From contig JADJXF010000013.1 of NCBI GenBank assembly GCA_016715995.1, forward strand, positions 69,636 through 133,635: a DNA stretch of 64,000 nucleotides. The letters run 5' to 3'. The stretch is from Flavobacteriales bacterium. GTDB taxonomy: Bacteria; Bacteroidota; Bacteroidia; Flavobacteriales_F; PHOS-HE28. The translations under genes and the position numbers were made by a program. This document shows, in pieces, positions 11,023 to 28,750 of the stretch (positions within the stretch are counted from its first letter, which is position 1; each line of letters begins with the position of its first letter). Under the pieces are notes generated by a model. It was not told the DNA's origin, searched no databases, and saw only the letters and a program-made list of their open reading frames with translations.

Positions 11023-12867
11023 ATGCGCTGGGGCCTGATTTTACCGATCGGCCTGCTGGCCGCGTGCTCGAATCCGGCAGACCGCGCGGTGAACCGCTGG
11101 GCGGATGAAAGGTTCTGGGCTTTGCTGGAAGCGCAGGACCTCCGTGATACCGAGAGGCTGTGCGCCCTTATGGAGGACAGCTCAGCGCTTGTTCGTGAAT
11201 CGGCAGCGCTCGCCTTTGCCAGCGCGCAATCGTCCGTTTCCATTCCATGCCTGCTCAAGGCGCTCAATGATCCGCAGCCTCGGGTGCGCGCCACCGCCGC
11301 TTTCGCGCTGGGCTTCGTGGCCGACAGTTCCGTTTGGAGCGAATTGCCGGACATCGCGATGAACGAGACGGACACTGCGGTGCAGCGTGCGCTGCTCAGC
11401 GCGTCCTTCCTGGCCATGCAGCGTACGGGCCGGCTCACGGACCCCAATGCCATCCTGCATTACCTGCGCAGCAGCCATGGGCATGAGCGGGTGCGCGCCG
11501 CCGATGCGCTGCGGCGCCTGTCGGACAGCCTTGTGCAGAAGGCGGGGAGCGACATCAACGCGATGATGAGCCAGGAAGGCACGGAGGTGAGGCAGTTCCT
11601 GATCCTCGCCATGCGCAAGCTGGGTACGTCCGCCGACATCGCGGAACTTCAGCGCATCGCGAGGGAGGGAATCGACTTCGGCGAGCGGGTGAACGCCGTG
11701 CGAGTCTGTGGCAAACTCATGGAGGGTGGGGATGGTGAGCGGCTCCTGTGGAACGCGGTATGGGACGAAGCAGCAGGTGATGCCGCGTTGGCTTGGCTGG
11801 CCGAGCGCTTACAAGTGGATGCACGCGCCAGCTTGCGCCACGCGCTCGAAAGCCCGGACACGCTGATGCGAATCGCGATGCTCGGGCTGGCCATGAAGCA
11901 CGGTGAGGAGCGAACGGCGGATAGCGCACGGGCGATGCTGAACGCCATCGCGGCTGTGGAGCGCGACGCCTTTCGAAGAGCGGCCGTCACCGCTGCGCGC
12001 GCCGAGGCTCCGCAGGAAGGGGACTTGTCAGCCTTCGTTGATTTGATGCAAGGCGATCTGCATCCGATGGAACGGCAGGCCGCGTTCCAAGGCGCCATGC
12101 GCATCGTGCGTGGCATCATGATGCGTTCGCGCTATGCTTCACGGGAGGCGCAGTACGCGCAGCTCAGCGAGGTGGCGGGCGTAGCGCTAAGCTCCGGCGA
12201 TGCGGGGCTCATCAGCGCAGCGGCGGAGTTGATCGCGGCCGAGGAGAGCGATGCGATTCGCCTGCTGCTTCCGCCGGCGCTCGAATCGAAGGCCCGCTCG
12301 GCACTGGAACCCCTCCGTGACCTGGAGGCGCTGCTGTTGCTGGACCAGGCTGTCGCCAAACGAGACGGCTTGCCAAGGCCCGCTCATCGCGCTCCACCAT
12401 TCAACCACCCGATCGATAAGGCGAAACTCCGGACATTGAAGCAGGGTCAGCGCTACCGCATCGTCACCAACAAAGGCGTCATCGTCATCGCAACGGATGT
12501 GGATGAGTGCCCCGGCAGCAGCCTCGCTTTCGACTCGCTTGTTACCGCAGGCTATTACAACGGCAAGGCCTTCCACCGCGTGGTGCCCAACTTCGTCATT
12601 CAAGGGGGCTGCCCGCGCGGCGATGGTTACGGCGGCATGCCTTGGACGCTGCGCACCGAGATTGGCCGTTCCTCCTTCACCGCTGGCTCAGTCGGGCTGG
12701 CGAGCGCTGGCCGCGATACGGAGAGCTGCCAGTTCTTCATCACTCACAGCGTCGCCCCGCATTTGGATGGCCGCTATACGCGCTTCGGCGAGGTGGTGGA
12801 GGGGATGGAGGTGGTGTGGAGGATCCAGGTGGGGGACCGGATGCTCCGAGTGGAGCAGGTGATGTAA
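11023..12867 (+). CDS. Lipoprotein fusing HEAT/PBS-lyase-like repeats to a C-terminal cyclophilin-type peptidyl-prolyl isomerase domain
   Basis: 614 aa with lipobox LLAACS. There are multiple helical repeats of the form VRxxAAxALG. The C-terminus FHRVVPNFVIQGGCPRGDGYGG...GSVGLASAGRDTESCQFFITHSVAPHLDGRYTRFGEVVEGMEVV is a cyclophilin PPIase signature. Confidence 0.75.
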   Translation: MRWGLILPIGLLAACSNPADRAVNRWADERFWALLEAQDLRDTERLCALMEDSSALVRESAALAFASAQSSVSIPCLLKALNDPQPRVRATAAFALGFVADSSVWSELPDIAMNETDTAVQRALLSASFLAMQRTGRLTDPNAILHYLRSSHGHERVRAADALRRLSDSLVQKAGSDINAMMSQEGTEVRQFLILAMRKLGTSADIAELQRIAREGIDFGERVNAVRVCGKLMEGGDGERLLWNAVWDEAAGDAALAWLAERLQVDARASLRHALESPDTLMRIAMLGLAMKHGEERTADSARAMLNAIAAVERDAFRRAAVTAARAEAPQEGDLSAFVDLMQGDLHPMERQAAFQGAMRIVRGIMMRSRYASREAQYAQLSEVAGVALSSGDAGLISAAAELIAAEESDAIRLLLPPALESKARSALEPLRDLEALLLLDQAVAKRDGLPRPAHRAPPFNHPIDKAKLRTLKQGQRYRIVTNKGVIVIATDVDECPGSSLAFDSLVTAGYYNGKAFHRVVPNFVIQGGCPRGDGYGGMPWTLRTEIGRSSFTAGSVGLASAGRDTESCQFFITHSVAPHLDGRYTRFGEVVEGMEVVWRIQVGDRMLRVEQVM

Positions 12868-12941: not shown

Positions 12942-15695
12942 ATGCCCTCCCTCACCGACACCCGGCTGCGACAGCATTACAATGCTGCCCGGCTGCGCTC
13001 CCACACGTGGGACCAGCTCAAGCTGGCTGCGATGGACCTCGATGAGGGGCGCGGCGCTCCGGAGGAAGTGGCGGCTATCCTGAACGACCTGCACTCCATC
13101 GAGCTCTACTGGGCCTATCCCGGGCGCGAGACCGTTCGCCGCCTGCAAGAGATGCTGCGCACGAGGGAGCACCATGGGCTGCACCTCGCGGTGAACAATG
13201 TGGTGCGTGTCCTCAGCAGCGGGGCCTTCCGCAGCGATCCGGCCTCCTTGGCCGACCCGCTCTCCGGTGCGCGCGAGCTGCTGGCCGAGGAAGAGGAGAA
13301 GCCCAAGCCCAACTACTTCGAGGTGCTCTTCGTGGATGAGCTGGATGCGGAAGAGGAAGCAGCGCTGAGGCAGAAGCTGCACAAGTGCCGGGACAAGAGC
13401 GACGCCTTCGTGTACGATGCTCTCGTGGTGCGCACGGTGCAGGATGCGCTCATCGCGCTGCTCTTCAACCACAACATCCAGGCGGTGGTGGCGCGCTTCG
13501 GGGTGCCCTTCGCAAGCGCCAACAACGGCGGCGTGCTGCGCGAATTCACGCGGGCCATCGACGCCCTCGAACCAGGGAGCCTAGGCCGTGCTCACATGGG
13601 TCCGTTCCTTGGCCGCCTCACGCGGTGGTTCCGGCCCGAAGTGGACCGCTATTACGTCACCGACACTCCGCTCCCCGAGCTCGAGGACGCCACCCTCGCC
13701 AGCTTCCGCCGCATCTTCTATCGCACCGAGGACCTCACCGAGCTGCACCTCCCTATTCTCCGCGGCATCCAGGAGAGGTACGAGACGCCCTTCTTCACCG
13801 CGCTGAAGGAATACAGCAAGCGACCGATGGGCGTCTTCCACGCCATGCCGATCAGCCGCGGCAACAGCGTGTTCAAGAGCCGGTGGATCCAGGACTTCGG
13901 CGAGTTCTACGGGCGCAACCTCTTCCTCGCGGAGACCAGTGCCACCACAGGCGGACTCGACTCGCTGCTGCAGCCCACCGGCCCGTTGAAGAGGGCGCAG
14001 GAGCTGGCTGCGCGCGCCTTCGGGAGCCAGCAGACCTTCTTCGCCACCAACGGCACCAGCTCCAGCAACAAGATCGTGGTGCAAGCCCTGGTGGAGCCGG
14101 GCGACATCGTGCTCATCGACCGCGACTGCCACAAGAGCCACCACTACGGCATGGTGCTCAGTGGCGCCTACCCCGTTTACCTGCACAGCTTTCCCTTGAA
14201 GAAGTACAGCATGTACGGCGCGGTTCCGTTGGAGCACATCCGCGACCAGCTCTTCAAGCTGAAGAAGGCCGGCCGCCTCGACAAGGTGAAGATGCTGCTG
14301 CTCACCAACAGCACCTTCGATGGTGTGGTGTACAATGTGGAGCGTGTGATGGAACAGGTCCTCGCGATCAAGCCGGACATCGTGTTCCTCTGGGATGAGG
14401 CCTGGTGGGCATTCGGACGTTTCAGCTATGTGCTGCGCCAACGCACGGCCATGCATGTGGCGCAGAAGCTCGCCCGCAAGTACCGCGCGCTCGAGTACAA
14501 GGCTGCGTACGCGAGGCACATCGCTTCCTTGAAGTCGGGTGAGGCGCCGCGCCTGCCGGACCCCGACAAGGTGCGCATCCGCGTGTATGCCACGCAGAGC
14601 ACGCATAAGACGCTCACCTCGCTGCGCCAAGGGAGCATGATTCACATCTGGGATGAGGACTTCGCGCGCAAGAGCGAGGCCAGCTTCCACGAGGCGTACA
14701 TGACGCACACCAGCACCAGCGCCAACTACCAGATCCTCGCGAGCATGGACGTGGGTCGCCGTCAGGTCGAATTCGAAGGCTTTGAGTTGGTCGAGAAGGC
14801 CATAGAACTTGGATTGTTGCTTCGCCGCACGGTGCGCGAGCATCCGAAGCTGAAGCGCTGGTTCGATATCATCACCATCGGTGAGCTGATACCCGGCGCC
14901 TACCGACAGAGCGGACTCGACAGCTATTACCGCCGTGACCAGGGATGGAACGAGATCGAGAAGGCATGGGCGGAGGATGAGTTCGCCGTGGACCCCACCA
15001 AGATCAACCTGTACACCGGCAAGACCGGCATCGATGGCGACACCTTCAAGAACAAGTTCTTGATGGACAAGCACCAGATCCAGATCAACAAGACCTCGCG
15101 CAACTCGGTGCTCTTCATGACCAACATCGGCACCACGCGCGGTTCATTGGCTTACCTCACCAAGGTGCTGCTGCAGATCGCCGAGGAGCTGGAGCAGCGC
15201 AATGCGGGCTTCGAGCCCGACGACAAGCGCGCCCACCTCGACAAGATCCGCACGCTCGTGGAGGAGGTTCCGCCCCTGCCGGACTTCTCCAGCTTCCACC
15301 GCAGCTTCCAAGGGCAGCCTGGTGTCCCCGGTGGCGACCTGCGATCGGCCTATTTCCTCGCATACGACGAGAAGCGCTGCGAGCACGTGAAGCTCGCGGA
15401 CAGCTTGGCGGCGCTGCGCAGCGAACGTGAGTTGGTCTCGGCCAGCTTTGTGATCCCCTATCCGCCCGGCTTCCCGGTGCTGGTGCCTGGGCAGGTCATC
15501 AACCAGGAGATCATCGACTTTCTGCTGGCGCTGGATGTGAAGGAGATTCACGGCTACCGGCCGGAGCTCGGCCTGCGTGTGTTCACCGAGGCAGCGCTTG
15601 GCAGGCAACGGACAACGACGGCGATGGGGGGGATGCGTGCGCCGACAACGCCCCCTGCGAATGGCGTAGGCCGGAAGAAGACCAAACGACCATGA
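12942..15695 (+). CDS. PLP-dependent Orn/Lys/Arg decarboxylase family enzyme (fold type I, OKR_DC_1-like) with an N-terminal extension of about 120 aa
   Basis: The start is set at MPSLTDTRL within track ORF 12507..15695, whose 5' part overlaps the upstream gene. The wing domain reads YFEVLFVDEL... The major domain reads FHAMPISRGNSVF...ATNGTSSSNKIVVQALVEPGDIVLIDRDCHKSHHYG. The PLP-lysine motif ATQSTHKTLTSLRQGSMIH is present. The C-terminus ends GRKKTKRP. Confidence 0.8.
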   Translation: MPSLTDTRLRQHYNAARLRSHTWDQLKLAAMDLDEGRGAPEEVAAILNDLHSIELYWAYPGRETVRRLQEMLRTREHHGLHLAVNNVVRVLSSGAFRSDPASLADPLSGARELLAEEEEKPKPNYFEVLFVDELDAEEEAALRQKLHKCRDKSDAFVYDALVVRTVQDALIALLFNHNIQAVVARFGVPFASANNGGVLREFTRAIDALEPGSLGRAHMGPFLGRLTRWFRPEVDRYYVTDTPLPELEDATLASFRRIFYRTEDLTELHLPILRGIQERYETPFFTALKEYSKRPMGVFHAMPISRGNSVFKSRWIQDFGEFYGRNLFLAETSATTGGLDSLLQPTGPLKRAQELAARAFGSQQTFFATNGTSSSNKIVVQALVEPGDIVLIDRDCHKSHHYGMVLSGAYPVYLHSFPLKKYSMYGAVPLEHIRDQLFKLKKAGRLDKVKMLLLTNSTFDGVVYNVERVMEQVLAIKPDIVFLWDEAWWAFGRFSYVLRQRTAMHVAQKLARKYRALEYKAAYARHIASLKSGEAPRLPDPDKVRIRVYATQSTHKTLTSLRQGSMIHIWDEDFARKSEASFHEAYMTHTSTSANYQILASMDVGRRQVEFEGFELVEKAIELGLLLRRTVREHPKLKRWFDIITIGELIPGAYRQSGLDSYYRRDQGWNEIEKAWAEDEFAVDPTKINLYTGKTGIDGDTFKNKFLMDKHQIQINKTSRNSVLFMTNIGTTRGSLAYLTKVLLQIAEELEQRNAGFEPDDKRAHLDKIRTLVEEVPPLPDFSSFHRSFQGQPGVPGGDLRSAYFLAYDEKRCEHVKLADSLAALRSERELVSASFVIPYPPGFPVLVPGQVINQEIIDFLLALDVKEIHGYRPELGLRVFTEAALGRQRTTTAMGGMRAPTTPPANGVGRKKTKRP

Positions 15696-17347
15696 GTAAG
15701 AAGACCAAGAAAGCCGCCATGCGCAAAGGCAAGGGGGTTACTCCGAAGCGGAAGGCCGTAAGACGCGCTCCGGTTAGGGCCGCCAAGCCCGTTCGGAAAG
15801 CCGCACCTGCAAAGAGGACGGTGACACGCCCGGCAAAGATGTCTTCATCCCGCACCCGAGGGAAGAAGCCCGCCAACCTCCTCAGAGGCATCAGCGACAT
15901 CCGCCGTTTCTTCTACCGGAACGAAACGCCGATCTACTTCATCAGCGCCACCAACTTCAACCTGCTCGGCGCGGACGAGTGGATCAAGGGCTTCAAGTTC
16001 ATCACCTACATCGATTGCTTCGATGGGCTGCACCCGAACCTGATGAGCCCGAAGACCGAGGAGCCGCACGAGGAGTTCCAGAGCATCGAGGACATCAACA
16101 ACTACCTGCTCACGCACAGTGAGGTGCGCGATTTCATCGAGAGCCGGAAGATGAACGGGAAGAACGGCAAAGCGCTCTTCCTGATGTTCGATGAGAAGAC
16201 CGAAGCACTGGCGAAGAAGGCCGGGCTCGAAGTGATCTTCCCTCCCGCCAAACTGCGCAGCTGGCTGGACAACAAGGTGAACACCAACCGCGTGGCCGAG
16301 AAGGCTGGCGTGCCCTGCGTGCCTTACGTGCTCCATCCGGTGAAGAACTTCGAGCACCTGATGCAGGTCGCTGCGAAGGGCAAGCTCGGCAACGACCTCG
16401 TGGTGCAAACGCCCTACGGCGACAGTGGCCACACCACCTTCTTCATCAAGACCAAGGAGGAATACGCCAAGTACGCGGAGGAGATCGAGGCGGAGAAGGA
16501 GTGCAAGATCATGAAGCGCATCAACTGTCGCGGTGCGGCCATGGAAGCATGCGTTACGCGGCATGGCACCATCGTGGCGCCGTTGATGACGGAGCTGGTC
16601 GGCTTCAAGGAACTTACTCCATACAAAGGCGGCTGGTGCGGTAACGAGATCTTCAGCGACACCTTCACTCCGAAGATCCGCGCGAAGGCCCGCAAGTACG
16701 CACGCCTCTTCGGCGATCAACTGCGCAAGGAGGGCTACAAGGGCTATTTCGAGCTCGATTACCTCATCGACAAGGACAACGGCGAGATCTACCTGGGTGA
16801 ACTGAACCCGCGCGTTACGGGCGCGAGCAGCATCACCAACCACGCGGTCTTCGCACTGAGCGACATGCCGCTGCACCTCTTCCATACACTGGAATGGATG
16901 AACGTGCCGTACGAGATCAGCGTGAACGCGCTCAATCGCCGCTGGGCCAAAGAGGAGAACATCGACACCTGGGGCCAGATGGTGATCAAGTACACCACGG
17001 ATGATGTGCAACGCGTGACCGAAGCTCCGCGCAGCGGCATCTGGCGCATGCGCGAGGATGGCAGCATCTACTTCTGGCGCATGGACACGCACCGCCGCTA
17101 CGTAGAGAAGGACAACGAGGCCTTCTTCCTGCGGATCACGCGTCCCGGCGATTGGTTCTACGAAGGCGCCGATATGGGCATCCTCGTGATGCGCGGCCGC
17201 ATGATGACCGACGATTTCAAATTGACCGAGCGCTCAAAGAAATGGCTGGCGGCGATTCGCACGCAGTTCAAGAGCGTGGCACCGGGTGCGCACAGCGCGA
17301 ACGGACATGAGCATCTCTTGGAGATCGGTGGTTTCAAAATGATGTGA
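15692..17347 (+). CDS. ATP-grasp superfamily ligase (carboxylate-amine ligase type) with a ~60 aa Lys/Arg-rich N-terminal tail
   Basis: 551 aa. The start overlaps the decarboxylase stop (ATGA), suggesting translational coupling. The N-terminus MSKKTKKAAMRKGKGVTPKRKAVRRAPVRAAKPVRKAAPAKR is strongly basic. The ATP-grasp core includes NKVNTNRVAEKAGVP and GYFELDYLIDKDNGEIYLGELNPRVTGASS, the latter resembling the E-x-N-P-R motif of CPSase/biotin-carboxylase-type ATP-grasp enzymes. Confidence 0.7.
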   Translation: MSKKTKKAAMRKGKGVTPKRKAVRRAPVRAAKPVRKAAPAKRTVTRPAKMSSSRTRGKKPANLLRGISDIRRFFYRNETPIYFISATNFNLLGADEWIKGFKFITYIDCFDGLHPNLMSPKTEEPHEEFQSIEDINNYLLTHSEVRDFIESRKMNGKNGKALFLMFDEKTEALAKKAGLEVIFPPAKLRSWLDNKVNTNRVAEKAGVPCVPYVLHPVKNFEHLMQVAAKGKLGNDLVVQTPYGDSGHTTFFIKTKEEYAKYAEEIEAEKECKIMKRINCRGAAMEACVTRHGTIVAPLMTELVGFKELTPYKGGWCGNEIFSDTFTPKIRAKARKYARLFGDQLRKEGYKGYFELDYLIDKDNGEIYLGELNPRVTGASSITNHAVFALSDMPLHLFHTLEWMNVPYEISVNALNRRWAKEENIDTWGQMVIKYTTDDVQRVTEAPRSGIWRMREDGSIYFWRMDTHRRYVEKDNEAFFLRITRPGDWFYEGADMGILVMRGRMMTDDFKLTERSKKWLAAIRTQFKSVAPGAHSANGHEHLLEIGGFKMM

Positions 17348-17360
17348 GGACGAAGGGAGC

Positions 17361-18353
17361 ATGTACGTACACCTGAAACTTGTGAAGGAGCCGTGGCCGA
17401 GCGATCGGTGGCAGACCTTCTTCGACCGCGCTTGGCCGCTGTTCAAGATCTGGTACGAGAGCGAAGGCCTAGAGAAGCGCCCCGACCTGGTGACCTGCCG
17501 AAGCATGCTGGAGCTGCACATGCCCGAATTGATCCCGGTCTACAATTCGCTGTGTCGCATCGCGAAGGACGATGATGTCGCATCGCGCTTCCTGAGCATG
17601 TGGTGCCCGCCGCCCTACATGGCCGGCTGCTCGCAAGTCGCTTGGACGAAAGGCGCGCCCACGCTCATCCGCAACTACGACTTCGACCCCCGCTACTTCG
17701 ATGGCCGCATGCGCTACAGCGAGTATGTGAAACCGGTCATCGGCATCCAAGACAGCGGGTGGGGCTTGCTCGATGGCATGAACAGCGATGGCCTGGCCTT
17801 AGCGCTCGCTTTCGGCGGAAGGAAGGTGTGGGGAACAGGCTTCGGCATCCCGCTGGTGATCCGCTATGTGCTGGAGACGTGCAGCACCACAGATGAGGCG
17901 TGCATTGTGCTCTCGCGAATCCCGGTGCACATGGGCTACAACGTCACAGTGGTGGACAAGAGCGGGAAGTACGCCACCGTGTACATGAACCACGACCGTC
18001 CGGCACAGGTGGTCTATCAGGCCGTGGCATGCAACCACCAGCATCAGGTGGAATGGGATGAATATGCCGCGTTCACGAACACAATCGAACGCAAGCACTT
18101 CCTGGAGCACAGCATCGCGCAGCCCAAGCTCACCCGCGCACAGCTGATCAAGCAGTTCCTGAAGCCGCCGCTCTACAGCCAGCAATACCTGCGCGGCTTC
18201 GGCACGCTCTACACAGCGGCCTACGATGTGGCCAAGGGGCGGGTGCAGATCATCTGGCCGGAGAAGCAGGTGGAGGCGAGCTTCAAACGGTTTGAGGAAC
18301 AGGAGGTGCAGGTTGTGCTCTTGAAGCCCGTGGGCCGGTACTTGGCCAAGTAG
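17361..18353 (+). CDS. C45-family Ntn hydrolase / acyl-CoA:6-aminopenicillanic-acid acyltransferase-like protein
   Basis: 330 aa. A Gly-Cys self-processing and nucleophile site lies in MWCPPPYMAGCSQVAW. The sequence has an Ntn-hydrolase-like alternating beta pattern (GWGLLDGMNSDGLALALAFGG, YNVTVVDKSGKYATVYM). Confidence 0.6.
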   Translation: MYVHLKLVKEPWPSDRWQTFFDRAWPLFKIWYESEGLEKRPDLVTCRSMLELHMPELIPVYNSLCRIAKDDDVASRFLSMWCPPPYMAGCSQVAWTKGAPTLIRNYDFDPRYFDGRMRYSEYVKPVIGIQDSGWGLLDGMNSDGLALALAFGGRKVWGTGFGIPLVIRYVLETCSTTDEACIVLSRIPVHMGYNVTVVDKSGKYATVYMNHDRPAQVVYQAVACNHQHQVEWDEYAAFTNTIERKHFLEHSIAQPKLTRAQLIKQFLKPPLYSQQYLRGFGTLYTAAYDVAKGRVQIIWPEKQVEASFKRFEEQEVQVVLLKPVGRYLAK

Positions 18354-18383
18354 TCCCTCGCCAGAGGGCGGTACTTTTGGGCC

Positions 18384-19856
18384 ATGCCCAGGACAGCGAC
18401 CGCGCCAACGAAGCCTTCGAATACCACTGCGCTCTTCACCCCTGCCAACCTCATCAACGGCGTTTGGGTGGATGAGGGTGACGGCACCTTCAATGCCGTT
18501 ATCGATAAATACCACGGCACCGAGCTGGCCAGGATTCCGCATGCCACCGAGGCACAGATGGAAGAGGCCATCGCAGCAGCCTACGCAAGTCGTGATGCAT
18601 TGAAGAAACTGAGCGCCGGTGACCGCAGTGCGAAGCTGGAAGCGTTGGCGTCATTGATCGCGAAGCACGAAGATGAGCTCGCCCGGCTCATCGTTCAGGA
18701 AGGCGGCAAGCCCATCGGTTACGCGAAGACGGAGATCGCGCGGTGCATCACCACGGTGTGCACGGCGGCGGCGGAAGCGTTGCGTTTCGGCGGTGAAGTG
18801 GTGCCCATGGATTTCGGCGCGGGTGTAGGTCGCACAGCGATCACCAAGCGATTTCCTATTGGTGTCATCGCGGCGATCACACCCTTCAACTTCCCGCTGA
18901 ATCTGGTGCTGCACAAGGTGGCTCCTGCGATGGCGGTGGGCTGCCCCGTGGTGCTGAAGCCTGCGCCCCAAGCACCATTGAGCGCATTGGTCCTTGGCCA
19001 GCTCATCGAGGAGATAGGCTGGCCGAAGGGCGCCTTCAACGTGATCATGTGCGGTGTACCCGTAGCGGAGAAACTCGTGAAGGACGAGCGCGTGGCCATG
19101 CTCAGCTTCACCGGCAGCGACAAGGTGGGCTGGCACTTGAAGAACATTTGCGGCAAGAAGAAGGTCGCCTTGGAACTCGGTGGAAACGCGAGCGTGATCG
19201 TGGACGAGGGCATAGACCTGGCCGCCATCGCGAAGACCGTAGCCGCTGGCGCGAACCTCTATGCGGGACAGACCTGCATCAGCACGCAGCGCATCTACGC
19301 GGTGAAGGGCGTCTTCGCGCAGTTCCGCGATTTGCTGGCGAAGGAGTACTCCGCGCTGAAAGCCGGGGACCCGAGCGATGCATCGGTGACCGTCGGCCCG
19401 ATCATCGACAAGGTGCACTTCGAGCGCATCAGCACTTGGGTCGATGAAGCGGTGAAGGGCGGCGCGCACGTGCTCGCAGGTGGGGAGCCCGTGGATGCTG
19501 CGCGCAACATCTACGCGGCCACCTTGCTTACCGGCACCAAGCCCGATATGAAAGTGACCTGCGCCGAGGTATTCGGGCCGGTAGCGATTCTGGAAGAAGT
19601 CACGGATTTCGGCGGAGCAATCGACCGCGTAAATGACTCCAGCTACGGCCTACAGGCGGGGGTCTTCACCGATTCGGTGGCGAACATGAAGCGCGCGCAC
19701 GACGAGTTGGAGGTCGGCGGTATCATCATCAACAACGTGCCCGGCTTCCGGATCGACCCCATGCCCTACGGCGGGATCAAAGACAGCGGCCTGGGCAGGG
19801 AGGGCGTGAAGTACGCGATGGAGGAGATGAGCGAGCCGCGGCTCCTGGTGTTCTGA
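18384..19856 (+). CDS. NAD(P)+-dependent aldehyde dehydrogenase
   Basis: 490 aa. ALDH motifs are present: ELGGNASVIV (Glu-active-site-type) and the catalytic cysteine region YAGQTCISTQR. The sequence is ALDH-like over its full length. Confidence 0.85.
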   Translation: MPRTATAPTKPSNTTALFTPANLINGVWVDEGDGTFNAVIDKYHGTELARIPHATEAQMEEAIAAAYASRDALKKLSAGDRSAKLEALASLIAKHEDELARLIVQEGGKPIGYAKTEIARCITTVCTAAAEALRFGGEVVPMDFGAGVGRTAITKRFPIGVIAAITPFNFPLNLVLHKVAPAMAVGCPVVLKPAPQAPLSALVLGQLIEEIGWPKGAFNVIMCGVPVAEKLVKDERVAMLSFTGSDKVGWHLKNICGKKKVALELGGNASVIVDEGIDLAAIAKTVAAGANLYAGQTCISTQRIYAVKGVFAQFRDLLAKEYSALKAGDPSDASVTVGPIIDKVHFERISTWVDEAVKGGAHVLAGGEPVDAARNIYAATLLTGTKPDMKVTCAEVFGPVAILEEVTDFGGAIDRVNDSSYGLQAGVFTDSVANMKRAHDELEVGGIIINNVPGFRIDPMPYGGIKDSGLGREGVKYAMEEMSEPRLLVF

Positions 19857-27370: not shown

Positions 27371-28750
27371 ATGAGCGAAGCAATCGCAGCCGCGCATCGC
27401 CTCCGTACGCATTTTGACACAGGCGCCACCCGCCCTTGTGCTGCACGCCGAGATGCACTTCGGGCCTTGCGTGCCGCCCTGCGGAAGCACGAAGAGGAGC
27501 TGCTCACGGCCATGCGCGCTGATATGCGCAAGCCGCGCTTCGAGGCCTATATGAGCGACATCGGCTTGGTGTACGCCGCCATCGACCACGCGCTGAAGCA
27601 CTTGAAGGAATGGATGCGGCCGCAGCGGGTGCTTTCGCCGTTGGCGATTCAAGTGGCTGAGAGCAAGGTGTATCCCGAGCCGCTCGGCGTGGTGCTCATC
27701 ATCGCGCCTTGGAATTATCCAGTGCTGCTGCTGCTCACGCCATTGGTGGGCGCTTTGGCGGCCGGCAATTGCGCGGTGCTCAAACCCAGCGAGGATGCGC
27801 CGCACACCGCCGCCGCCGTGGAGCGCATGCTTCGCGAAGCGCTGCCTGCTGATCTGGTCGTTGTTGTGCAAGGCGCGGGAAGTGACATGGTGCCTCCGCT
27901 CATGCGTGGCTTCCGCTTCGATCATGTCTTCTTCACCGGCAGCCCTGGGGTGGGGAGAGCGATTATGGGGATGGCCGCTGAGCAACTGGTGCCCGTGACG
28001 CTGGAGCTAGGAGGCAAGAGCCCCGCCATCGTGGACCGCACCGCCGATGTGAAAGTGGCGGCCAAGCGCATTGCCTGGAGCAAGTACTTCAATGCGGGGC
28101 AGACCTGCATCGCTACCGACCATGCGTTGGTGCACGCCTCGGTGATCGATGAGTTCCTGGACCGGTTCGCACGCTTCGTGAAGAAGGCCTACGGAGAGGA
28201 CCCGCAGCAGAGCCCCGACTATGCCCGCATGGTGCATGATCGCCGCTTCCAAGCGGTGAACGCATACCTCGGCCAAGGTCAGAACGCTATCGGCGGCGCC
28301 ACGGATGCGTCCGATCGTTACATCGCGCCCACCGTGCTCACGCATGTTGCGCTCGATAGCCTGGTGATGCGCGAGGAGATCTTCGGTCCTGTGCTTCCGG
28401 TGATTCCTTGGAGCGAACCGGAAGAGGCACTCGTGATCACGCGCCACAACCCGCAGCCGTTGGCCGCATACATCTTCAGCAGTGACCGAAAGGCACAGCG
28501 CTTCTTCCGCGAACGCATCGCCTTCGGCGGCGGATGCATCAACCATTGCCTGCTGCAGTTCGGGCCGGAGGCACTACCCTTCGGCGGCGTAGGCGGCAGC
28601 GGCATGGGCCGCTACCATGGGAAGAGCACCTTCAATCTCTTCAGCAACCGGAAGGGCATCGTGCATGCGAGCACGCTCATCGATCCCGGCCTGCAGGAAC
28701 CGCCGTACACGAAGCTCAAGGAGCGCATCCTGCGGTGGGTGCTGAGATGA
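27371..28750 (+). CDS. Aldehyde dehydrogenase (class-3 / fatty-aldehyde dehydrogenase-like)
   Basis: 459 aa. Motifs are LELGGKSPAIV and the catalytic Cys in FNAGQTCIATDHAL. The short N-terminus is typical of class-3 ALDH. Confidence 0.85.
   Translation: MSEAIAAAHRLRTHFDTGATRPCAARRDALRALRAALRKHEEELLTAMRADMRKPRFEAYMSDIGLVYAAIDHALKHLKEWMRPQRVLSPLAIQVAESKVYPEPLGVVLIIAPWNYPVLLLLTPLVGALAAGNCAVLKPSEDAPHTAAAVERMLREALPADLVVVVQGAGSDMVPPLMRGFRFDHVFFTGSPGVGRAIMGMAAEQLVPVTLELGGKSPAIVDRTADVKVAAKRIAWSKYFNAGQTCIATDHALVHASVIDEFLDRFARFVKKAYGEDPQQSPDYARMVHDRRFQAVNAYLGQGQNAIGGATDASDRYIAPTVLTHVALDSLVMREEIFGPVLPVIPWSEPEEALVITRHNPQPLAAYIFSSDRKAQRFFRERIAFGGGCINHCLLQFGPEALPFGGVGGSGMGRYHGKSTFNLFSNRKGIVHASTLIDPGLQEPPYTKLKERILRWVLR

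Follow-up and report, generated by a model that had tools for sequence, protein, structure and literature searches.

Organization and conservation of the gene cluster

The DNA analysed here is a 64,000-nucleotide stretch (the window, with positions counted from its first letter) from a Flavobacteriales bacterium (assembly GCA_016715995.1, contig JADJXF010000013.1, positions 69,636 to 133,635 of the forward strand), and it carries a cluster of four enzyme genes that we interpret as a probable module of 4-aminobutyrate (GABA) metabolism. The genes encode a pyridoxal phosphate (PLP) decarboxylase, an ATP-grasp ligase, a C45-family N-terminal nucleophile (Ntn) hydrolase and an aldehyde dehydrogenase (ALDH). 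Their open reading frames (ORFs) are arranged head to tail on the forward strand across positions 12942-19856 with spacings of -4, 13 and 30 nt, and the features are as follows.

12942..15695, + strand: long-form (four-domain) PLP decarboxylase of 917 aa, a relative of Mycobacterium tuberculosis Rv2531c and a predicted L-glutamate decarboxylase
15692..15695, + strand: ATGA, shared by the stop codon of the decarboxylase gene and the start codon of the ATP-grasp gene (ACCATGAGTA, read directly in the sequence)
15692..17347, + strand: ATP-grasp ligase of 551 aa, NF005096 (PRK06524) family, a relative of M. tuberculosis Rv1722 (GabtS) and a predicted GABA (omega-amino acid) ligase
17361..18353, + strand: C45-family cysteine Ntn hydrolase/acyltransferase proenzyme of 330 aa, a predicted hydrolase (or transferase) of a GABA conjugate
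18384..19856, + strand: NAD(P)-dependent ALDH of 490 aa, a predicted succinic-semialdehyde dehydrogenase (SSADH)

The decarboxylase start is placed at the first ATG past the stop codon of the upstream gene (stop at 12867). The ATGA overlap is the mark of a predicted translational coupling of the decarboxylase and ATP-grasp genes, and it is followed by gaps of 13 nt between the ATP-grasp and C45 genes and 30 nt between the C45 and ALDH genes. An initial annotation of the region, made from the sequence alone, had described this tightly spaced head-to-tail cluster with its overlap and had named the four enzyme families; both descriptions are borne out, the families by matches to Pfam and NCBIfam models (PF01276, NF005096, PF03417/NF040521 and PF00171).

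Relatives were collected with a pattern-limited scan that used conserved ATP-grasp peptides and one genome per species, and they are present in 464 species genomes. Synteny was examined in the best 80 loci, all from other species and with up to 10 kb of flank on each side, and the counts given here and below use those loci that have sufficient flank. The C45 gene lies directly downstream of the ATP-grasp gene in 69 of 71 loci, the decarboxylase gene is found within 5 kb upstream of it in 53 of 64, and in 38 of 60 an ALDH gene lies no more than 5 kb downstream; the hosts include Flavobacteriales, Cytophagales, Saprospiraceae, Balneolales-like, Gemmatimonadales and Acidobacteria genomes. An arrangement repeated this far beyond chance rules out an accidental adjacency of the genes, and shows that the four genes have been conserved together as a genuine functional unit in Bacteroidota, Gemmatimonadota and Acidobacteriota. 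The initial annotation had staked its proposal on the co-conservation of the decarboxylase/ATP-grasp/C45 trio, and on these counts the trio holds together.

ORF clustering of all the loci reveals a larger operon, with three additional genes upstream of the decarboxylase gene. These encode a GabT-like class-III aminotransferase (35 of 55 loci), whose best NCBIfam matches are all 4-aminobutyrate transaminase models (TIGR00700, 500 bits against a cut-off of 507), a CN-hydrolase (37 of 55) and a small VOC/glyoxalase-fold protein (35 of 55). Cytophagales loci also have an APC-family permease gene between the decarboxylase and ATP-grasp genes. In the window and its nearest relatives (L015, L038 and L070) a cyclophilin gene replaces the three upstream genes, and a search of the 64-kb window found no transaminase, CN-hydrolase or VOC gene. 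The earlier remark that no amine oxidase is visible finds an explanation in the GabT-like transaminase that accompanies the cluster in 35 of 55 relatives and is missing here.

We also note that several Flavobacteriales loci (L001, L002, L006, L021, L038, L045, L070 and others) contain a GxxExxY-type ORF of 145 aa between the ATP-grasp and C45 genes, which is absent from the window. When the window proteins are compared with those of six Gemmatimonadales and Acidobacteria loci (L043, L046, L052, L054, L057 and L062), the ATP-grasp proteins are 73-81% identical, the decarboxylases 70-77% and the C45 proteins 59-73%. Identities this high across phyla suggest that the whole cluster either moved between phyla recently or is under extreme constraint. 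As to a role in defence, there were no PADLOC matches, and we rejected it.

The decarboxylase and the ATP-grasp ligase

The decarboxylase matches PF01276 (OKR_DC_1; E 7e-78), but its top match among solved structures is Rv2531c of M. tuberculosis (PDB 9N0O/9N0N; E 5e-235, 786 bits), for which structures 9N0N, 9N0O and 9N0P are available (PMC12329521). The alignment runs from residue 36 to 892 of the window protein and from 33 to 893 of the deposited 9N0O chain, in which a chain position plus 14 gives the Rv2531c numbering, and it takes in the extra N-terminal domain; the identity of 45% overall rises to 52% over the catalytic and C-terminal regions and falls to 26% in the N-terminal region. 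The window protein thus has the four-domain architecture, with the extra N-terminal domain, and its 917 aa lie within the ∼900-950 aa of this form. The arginine, lysine and ornithine decarboxylases AdiA, LdcI, LdcC and SpeC score at most 204 bits against the 786 of Rv2531c, and the NCBIfam models for lysine, ornithine and arginine decarboxylases give at most 208 bits against cut-offs of at least 794.

Rv2531c is a long four-domain form within the Lys/Orn/Arg-decarboxylase superfamily that is inactive on lysine, ornithine and arginine and forms GABA from L-glutamate in vitro when Mg2+ is supplied; once it is deleted GABA is no longer labelled from glutamate, the enzyme supplies ∼80% of GABA synthesis in vivo, and Flavobacteriia sequences fall within its sequence-similarity cluster (PMC13506015, PNAS 2026). 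The following active-site residues can be placed in the window protein.

14130..14135, + strand: His397-Lys398, equivalent to Rv2531c H405/K406 (PLP stacking; alpha-carboxylate contact) in the 9N0O alignment, invariant in 52 homologues
14607..14609, + strand: Lys556, the PLP Schiff-base lysine by alignment (Rv2531c K570, motif STHK; K570 is named in PMC12329521), invariant in 52 homologues
14625..14627, + strand: Arg562, equivalent to Rv2531c R576, the modelled binder of the gamma-carboxylate of glutamate (PMC13506015), invariant in 52 of 52 homologues

Rv2531c T606 and N731 correspond to T592 and N716 of the window protein and are likewise invariant in the 52 operon-linked homologues, so that six of the seven Rv2531c active-site residues (H405, K406, K570, R576, T606 and N731) are both identical and invariant. 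The two proteins therefore have in common the four-domain architecture, ∼860 aligned residues, the PLP lysine, the His-Lys pair, Arg576, Thr606 and Asn731, and differ in their genomic setting, the window gene forming an operon with ligase, hydrolase and ALDH genes and Rv2531c not being reported in such a cluster. Given the match to Rv2531c and the conservation of these residues, we read the window protein as a probable glutamate decarboxylase making GABA, and because the characterised member of the subfamily makes GABA from glutamate the product is probably an omega-amino acid rather than a diamine. The C-terminus of the decarboxylase (15600-15692) ends in a basic stretch, GRKKTKRP.

The ATP-grasp protein passes the equivalog cut-off of NF005096 (768 bits against 684), the model that carries the name 'biotin carboxylase' in annotation pipelines. 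The family is large: more than 5,500 of the clusters made at 90% identity match it, as do 318 of those made at 50% identity when E ≤1e-30 is required. A true biotin carboxylase, in a cluster that carboxylates some substrate, would agree with this name and with weak sequence and fold matches (E 1e-5 to 1e-8, 13-16% identity); these matches are however limited to the generic ATP-binding core, the biotin-carboxylase (accC/BC) models themselves give only 15-31 bits against cut-offs of 597-1114, no gene for a biotin carrier or a carboxyltransferase lies nearby in any of ∼85 loci, and the relative Rv1722 is a ligase. Nor does the predicted structure help the case, since the AlphaFold model is poor (predicted local distance difference test 62, predicted template modelling (TM) score 0.53, from a shallow 42-sequence alignment) and the biotin carboxylases that Foldseek finds with it, at TM scores of 0.2-0.27, say no more than 'generic ATP-grasp'. 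We regard this reading as barely credible. A cyanophycin or cell-wall ligase was considered and rejected: the D-Ala-D-Ala ligase model gives 16 bits and no cyanophycin synthetase model matches.

A more informative relative is Rv1722 (GabtS), an ATP-grasp GABA-trehalose synthetase of M. tuberculosis that is annotated as a possible (biotin) carboxylase and joins GABA and trehalose at the expense of ATP to give 6'-O-GABA-trehalose, a compound that reaches millimolar levels under hypoxia and nitric-oxide stress (bioRxiv 10.64898/2026.04.15.718621). In this reaction GABA contributes its carboxylate, which forms an ester with a sugar hydroxyl, the 6-OH of the acceptor trehalose; glucose is not accepted (bioRxiv 10.64898/2026.04.15.718621). 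Table S1 of the same preprint lists Mycobacterium barrassiae MCV7300379.1 as a BLASTP homologue of Rv1722 (E 2.8e-168); this homologue shares 44% identity with the window protein across 520 residues (E 5e-160) and itself passes NF005096 (738 bits). Through MCV7300379.1 and the shared family model we predict that the window enzyme is a GABA (omega-amino acid) ligase. Three homologue searches, with the window protein and its Allobranchiibius and M. barrassiae relatives as queries, returned environmental sequences throughout, with no M. tuberculosis entry among the best 120 matches of each. The assembly collection has no record of a protein identical to the window ATP-grasp protein.

Rv1722 and the window protein have further properties in common, in that NF005096 is judged, by way of the listed mycobacterial homologue, to cover both, both are annotated 'biotin carboxylase', each is paired with a downstream hydrolase gene, and each is tied genomically or evolutionarily to GABA metabolism. 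They differ in that the partner of Rv1722 is the beta-lactamase-fold Rv1723 whereas that of the window protein is a C45 enzyme, and in the presence of a long basic tail on the window protein.

15692..15895, + strand: N-terminal tail of the ATP-grasp protein, ∼68 residues in the translation, rich in Lys, Arg, Ala and Pro and with no acidic residues

Most Bacteroidota homologues have a similar basic tail (median 64 aa, with 21 Lys plus Arg and 0 Asp plus Glu), and Actinomycetota homologues are tailed too, two of them bearing a precomputed histone-H1-like PF07382 match. Neither a histone-like tail on a metabolic ligase nor the very high conservation of the ligase has an explanation within the scheme proposed below. 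In a metagenome-assembled genome of Myxococcales (L087:8895-11473) a distant ATP-grasp relative (395 bits on NF005096) is preceded, with stop and start overlapping, by an ORF for a group-II PLP decarboxylase (PF00282, 369 aa); the pairing of a decarboxylase with this ligase therefore recurs with an unrelated decarboxylase family.

The C45 enzyme, the aldehyde dehydrogenase and the GABA context

The C45 protein matches both PF03417 (AAT; E 2e-31, 110 bits against a cut-off of 23) and NF040521 (C45_proenzyme; 153 bits against 85), and has a candidate processing site.

17625..17630, + strand: Gly89-Cys90, where the C45 enzyme is predicted to cleave itself and expose its N-terminal nucleophile; C90 is invariant and G89 is present in at least 95% of 63 homologues

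An alignment of 21 sequences shows R104, N105, Y106, D107 and N141 to be invariant, with R104, D107 and N141 fitting the Arg/Asp/Asn catalytic helpers expected beyond the nucleophile in this family, and the protein has no signal peptide. Compared as a single sequence with solved structures it gives no matches; the profile of the 21 sequences finds only marginal choloylglycine-hydrolase matches (E 0.03), which cover the GMN-x-GL motif.

Evidence for what this enzyme might do comes from the position of its gene. In five of five Actinomycetota loci (Mycobacterium barrassiae, Arthrobacter, a Dermatophilaceae bacterium, Nocardioides and Antrihabitans) the gene directly after the ATP-grasp gene encodes a PF00144 beta-lactamase-fold protein, a placement that mirrors Rv1722-Rv1723 of M. 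tuberculosis, Rv1723 being an SxxK serine enzyme and a poor beta-lactamase. Because two unrelated hydrolase folds occupy one slot beside one ligase family, ligase and hydrolase appear to form a functionally coupled pair. A precedent for the chemistry is the Drosophila enzyme Tan, a relative of isopenicillin-N N-acyltransferase that hydrolyses beta-alanyl-dopamine and beta-alanyl-histamine (PMC1285064). With this precedent and the shared slot in mind, we propose that the C45 enzyme frees GABA from the product of the ATP-grasp enzyme, a function predicted here from gene context. By analogy the arrangement can be compared with carnosine/homocarnosine synthase, which is an ATP-grasp enzyme. It is also reminiscent of the cycle of the beta-alanyl-amine synthase Ebony and the C45-type hydrolase Tan, in which an omega-amino acid is conjugated using ATP and then freed by a self-processing cysteine hydrolase (PMC1285064); the organisms are unrelated, Ebony resembles a non-ribosomal peptide synthetase rather than an ATP-grasp enzyme, and the bond made by Rv1722 is an ester and not an amide, so the likeness is one of analogy.

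The C45 enzyme could instead be an acyltransferase that moves a 4-aminobutyryl group to a final acceptor, in a cluster that would make a GABA-containing solute or metabolite, or a repair lactamase that reopens 2-pyrrolidinone formed from cyclised 4-aminobutyryl-phosphate. The family includes the acyl-CoA:6-aminopenicillanic acid acyltransferase, the Actinomycetota partner has the fold of a lactam-binding enzyme, and cyclisation of an activated omega-amino acid would be expected on chemical grounds. Nothing in the analysis favours transfer or repair over hydrolysis, however; the catabolic genes of the operon (transaminase and ALDH) fit a scheme in which GABA is released and burned, and Tan is a plain hydrolase of beta-alanyl amines (PMC1285064). 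We therefore consider both of these functions unlikely.

The fourth protein matches PF00171 (Aldedh; E 2e-136), and among solved structures it comes closest to Burkholderia ALDHs that are uncharacterised (426 bits). The best characterised relative in the PDB is ALDH21 from moss (361 bits), which serves the GABA shunt as an NADP-dependent SSADH, and E. coli GabD comes next (293 bits); the best NCBIfam model is that for lactaldehyde dehydrogenase (433 bits against a cut-off of 650). The catalytic residues C298, E264 and N169 are invariant in 41 sequences. ALDH21 holds the carboxylate of its substrate through R121, R457 and Y296, and the equivalents of the two arginines, R120 and R456, are kept in 39 of 41 operon-linked ALDHs. 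We predict from these matches that the enzyme is a succinic-semialdehyde dehydrogenase. In Antrihabitans the ATP-grasp gene is adjoined by genes for a bona fide GabT (784 bits against 639), an SSADH-like ALDH and a glutamate dehydrogenase, and together with the GabT-like linkage in Bacteroidota and the SSADH-like ALDH of the cluster this makes GABA a common theme of ATP-grasp neighbourhoods.

The predicted net chemistry is that of the canonical GABA shunt (GadB, GabT and GabD), from glutamate through GABA and succinic semialdehyde to succinate. The window differs from it in having a decarboxylase of the OKR, fold-I long form rather than a group-II GadB, an ALDH nearer to ALDH21 than to GabD, no transaminase gene, and a ligase/hydrolase pair lying between the decarboxylase and ALDH genes.

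The initial annotation had put forward a different substrate, suggesting that an Orn/Lys/Arg-type decarboxylase gives a diamine, which the ATP-grasp enzyme amidates and the C45 enzyme de-amidates, with the ALDH acting on an amino-aldehyde in a non-orthologous analogue of the gamma-glutamyl-putrescine (Puu) route. Pfam does place the decarboxylase in OKR_DC_1, and the ALDH has sub-threshold matches to aminobutyraldehyde dehydrogenase and PuuC models. All of the lysine, ornithine and arginine decarboxylase models nevertheless score far below their cut-offs, as given above, and a diamine-forming enzyme is not supported when Rv2531c, which is inactive on these three amino acids, is so much the closer match (786 bits against at most 204). 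Amidation of an amine is not supported either, since Rv1722 esterifies the carboxylate of GABA to a sugar hydroxyl. The linked transaminase resembles GabT (510 bits) and not putrescine aminotransferase (252 bits), and the substrate channel of the ALDH has the two arginines that reportedly keep amino-aldehydes out of ALDH5 and ALDH21 by repulsion. We thus find the diamine route improbable. A general resemblance to the E. coli Puu pathway persists, as there too an intermediate is conjugated with ATP and processed, the conjugate is hydrolysed and an ALDH is involved, but the folds in the window are different, there is no oxidase, GABA probably takes the place of putrescine as the metabolite, and it is likely the carboxylate of GABA, not an amine, that becomes conjugated.

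A proposed GABA module and its wider distribution

We propose that the cluster is a GABA module in which glutamate is converted to GABA, the GABA is conjugated using ATP, released again and oxidized to succinate. Every step is drawn from homology and gene context, and we put the probability of the scheme as a whole at roughly 0.55. The 917-aa decarboxylase would convert L-glutamate to GABA, as judged by its homology to the enzyme characterised in 2026. The ATP-grasp enzyme, by virtue of its family membership, would activate the carboxylate of GABA with ATP and join it to an abundant acceptor, yielding a non-diffusible GABA conjugate that could act as a buffer or store of GABA carbon and nitrogen, as has been proposed for M. 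tuberculosis. After cutting itself at Gly89|Cys90, the C45 enzyme would cleave the conjugate to give back free GABA, a step suggested by gene context. A GabT-like transaminase encoded elsewhere in the genome would then convert GABA to succinic semialdehyde, and the ALDH would oxidize this to succinate, both being steps for which homology and context are the basis. The general logic of the earlier proposal, in which a decarboxylation product is conjugated by the ATP-grasp enzyme, the bond is then broken or transferred by an Ntn hydrolase and an aldehyde is dealt with by an ALDH, fits the evidence, although the substrates it named are probably wrong.

Several observations weigh against this scheme. 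The decarboxylase is just 45% identical to Rv2531c, and the modelled active-site residue R718 of Rv2531c is replaced by lysine (Lys703) in all 52 homologues. The K0.5 of Rv2531c for glutamate is 509 mM (PMC13506015), so that a better natural substrate is conceivable. The link between the window ATP-grasp protein and Rv1722 is indirect, by way of MCV7300379.1 and the common family model, and the identity of the two, roughly 40-45% as estimated from reported E-values, is one at which the donor or the acceptor could differ. In the ALDH the tyrosine that should match Y296 of ALDH21 is shifted by one position (Y293, where 292 is expected), and the protein passes no NCBIfam equivalog cut-off; with 338 bits against a cut-off of 646 on the SSADH model TIGR01780, it is filed as SSADH-like and not as a member. 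The 64-kb window has no transaminase gene, nor do 20 of the 55 loci have one nearby, and the scheme gives no role to the CN-hydrolase and VOC genes that are conserved in the wider operon. Finally, a synthetase and a hydrolase for a single bond in one operon would make an ATP-wasting cycle unless regulated.

Alternatively, the decarboxylase might act on another acidic or amide amino acid, such as glutamine to give 4-aminobutanamide or aspartate to give beta-alanine, with the CN-hydrolase deamidating the product and the ATP-grasp enzyme ligating an omega-amino compound. The high K0.5 of Rv2531c for glutamate could be understood in this way, the main-text nuclear magnetic resonance assay having spanned lysine, ornithine, arginine and glutamate, as could the replacement of R718 by lysine and the conservation of the CN-hydrolase gene beside that of the decarboxylase in 37 of 55 loci. 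The group-II PLP decarboxylase paired with the ligase in the Myxococcales relative also agrees with such flexibility, as do the neighbours of the ATP-grasp/beta-lactamase-fold pair in Arthrobacter sp. CJ23 (L083:1-9702). Upstream of that pair are two pairs of CN-hydrolase and flavin amine oxidase genes, together with genes for RidA, an amino-acid permease and an M20 peptidase, a set that resembles the DavB/DavA route by which omega-amino acids are made from basic amino acids. Against this, label from glutamate no longer reaches GABA once Rv2531c is deleted, and purified Rv2531c forms GABA. Moreover Arg562, which is proposed to bind the gamma-carboxylate, does not vary among the homologues, and the transaminase and ALDH resemble enzymes of the GABA shunt. 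On balance we think a substrate other than glutamate unlikely, although it is the alternative we take most seriously.

Under the GABA scheme, the cluster may also throw light on its M. tuberculosis counterparts. Rv1722 and Rv2531 are both on a high-confidence list of genes gained horizontally by the ancestor of the slow-growing mycobacteria (Veyrier et al. 2009, PMC3087520), and their joint acquisition fits, without being proof of, a shared origin in an operon like that in the window. The Rv2531c paper and the Rv1722 preprint each make no mention of the other's gene or of any gene neighbourhood; the preprint suggests that only mycobacteria have GABA-trehalose, and it raises the route of breakdown as a question still to be answered (bioRxiv 10.64898/2026.04.15.718621). 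We offer, tentatively and as the less secure part of our interpretation, the suggestion that ATP-driven GABA conjugation is widespread through an operon present in Bacteroidota, Gemmatimonadota and Acidobacteriota, that the C45 enzyme is the missing enzyme of GABA-conjugate breakdown, that the acceptor is a new one other than trehalose, and that an operon of this type was the donor of Rv2531c and Rv1722.

The initial annotation had called the cluster undescribed. This is too strong for its components, since two of the four enzyme families have members that were characterised in 2026 and the cluster is not categorically new, but it stands for the operon joining both enzyme types, for the C45 partner and for the spread across phyla, of which we found no description. 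If the wider suggestion is right, the C45 protein would be the first C45 enzyme from bacteria for which a physiological substrate is defined. Candidates for the missing hydrolase are the C45 enzyme of this cluster and, from its matching position, Rv1723 of M. tuberculosis. Relatives of Rv2531c and Rv1722 share one operon with a hydrolase and GABA-shunt enzymes in the window and in related loci across phyla, with translational coupling predicted, and this gives independent gene-context support for both functional assignments. GABA conjugation is predicted to be widespread in environmental bacteria (464 species genomes in the pattern-limited scan; more than 5,000 protein clusters), and the labels 'biotin carboxylase' and 'Orn/Lys/Arg decarboxylase' now carried by thousands of genes would be misleading and stand to be corrected.

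The surroundings of the cluster in the window are unrelated to it, with genes for LepA, GpsA, an M28 peptidase and a HEAT-cyclophilin protein upstream and for a large secreted protein, LpxD and UvrC downstream. The G+C content is ∼62% throughout, and the nearest homologues are in uncultured Flavobacteriales genomes. An Rfam scan of the whole 64-kb window matched no families, and promoter and terminator scans gave signals at or below the level of chance. A short GC-rich hairpin followed by a T-rich stretch lies in the gap between the C45 and ALDH genes (18355-18371, + strand), but as terminator-like sites in the region are rarer than chance expects it may be meaningless. A second ALDH gene (27371-28750, + strand; 459 aa, PF00171) is located ∼7.5 kb downstream of the cluster, after the genes for UvrC and a GT2 glycosyltransferase, and its product groups with the cluster's own ALDH in the ORF clustering.

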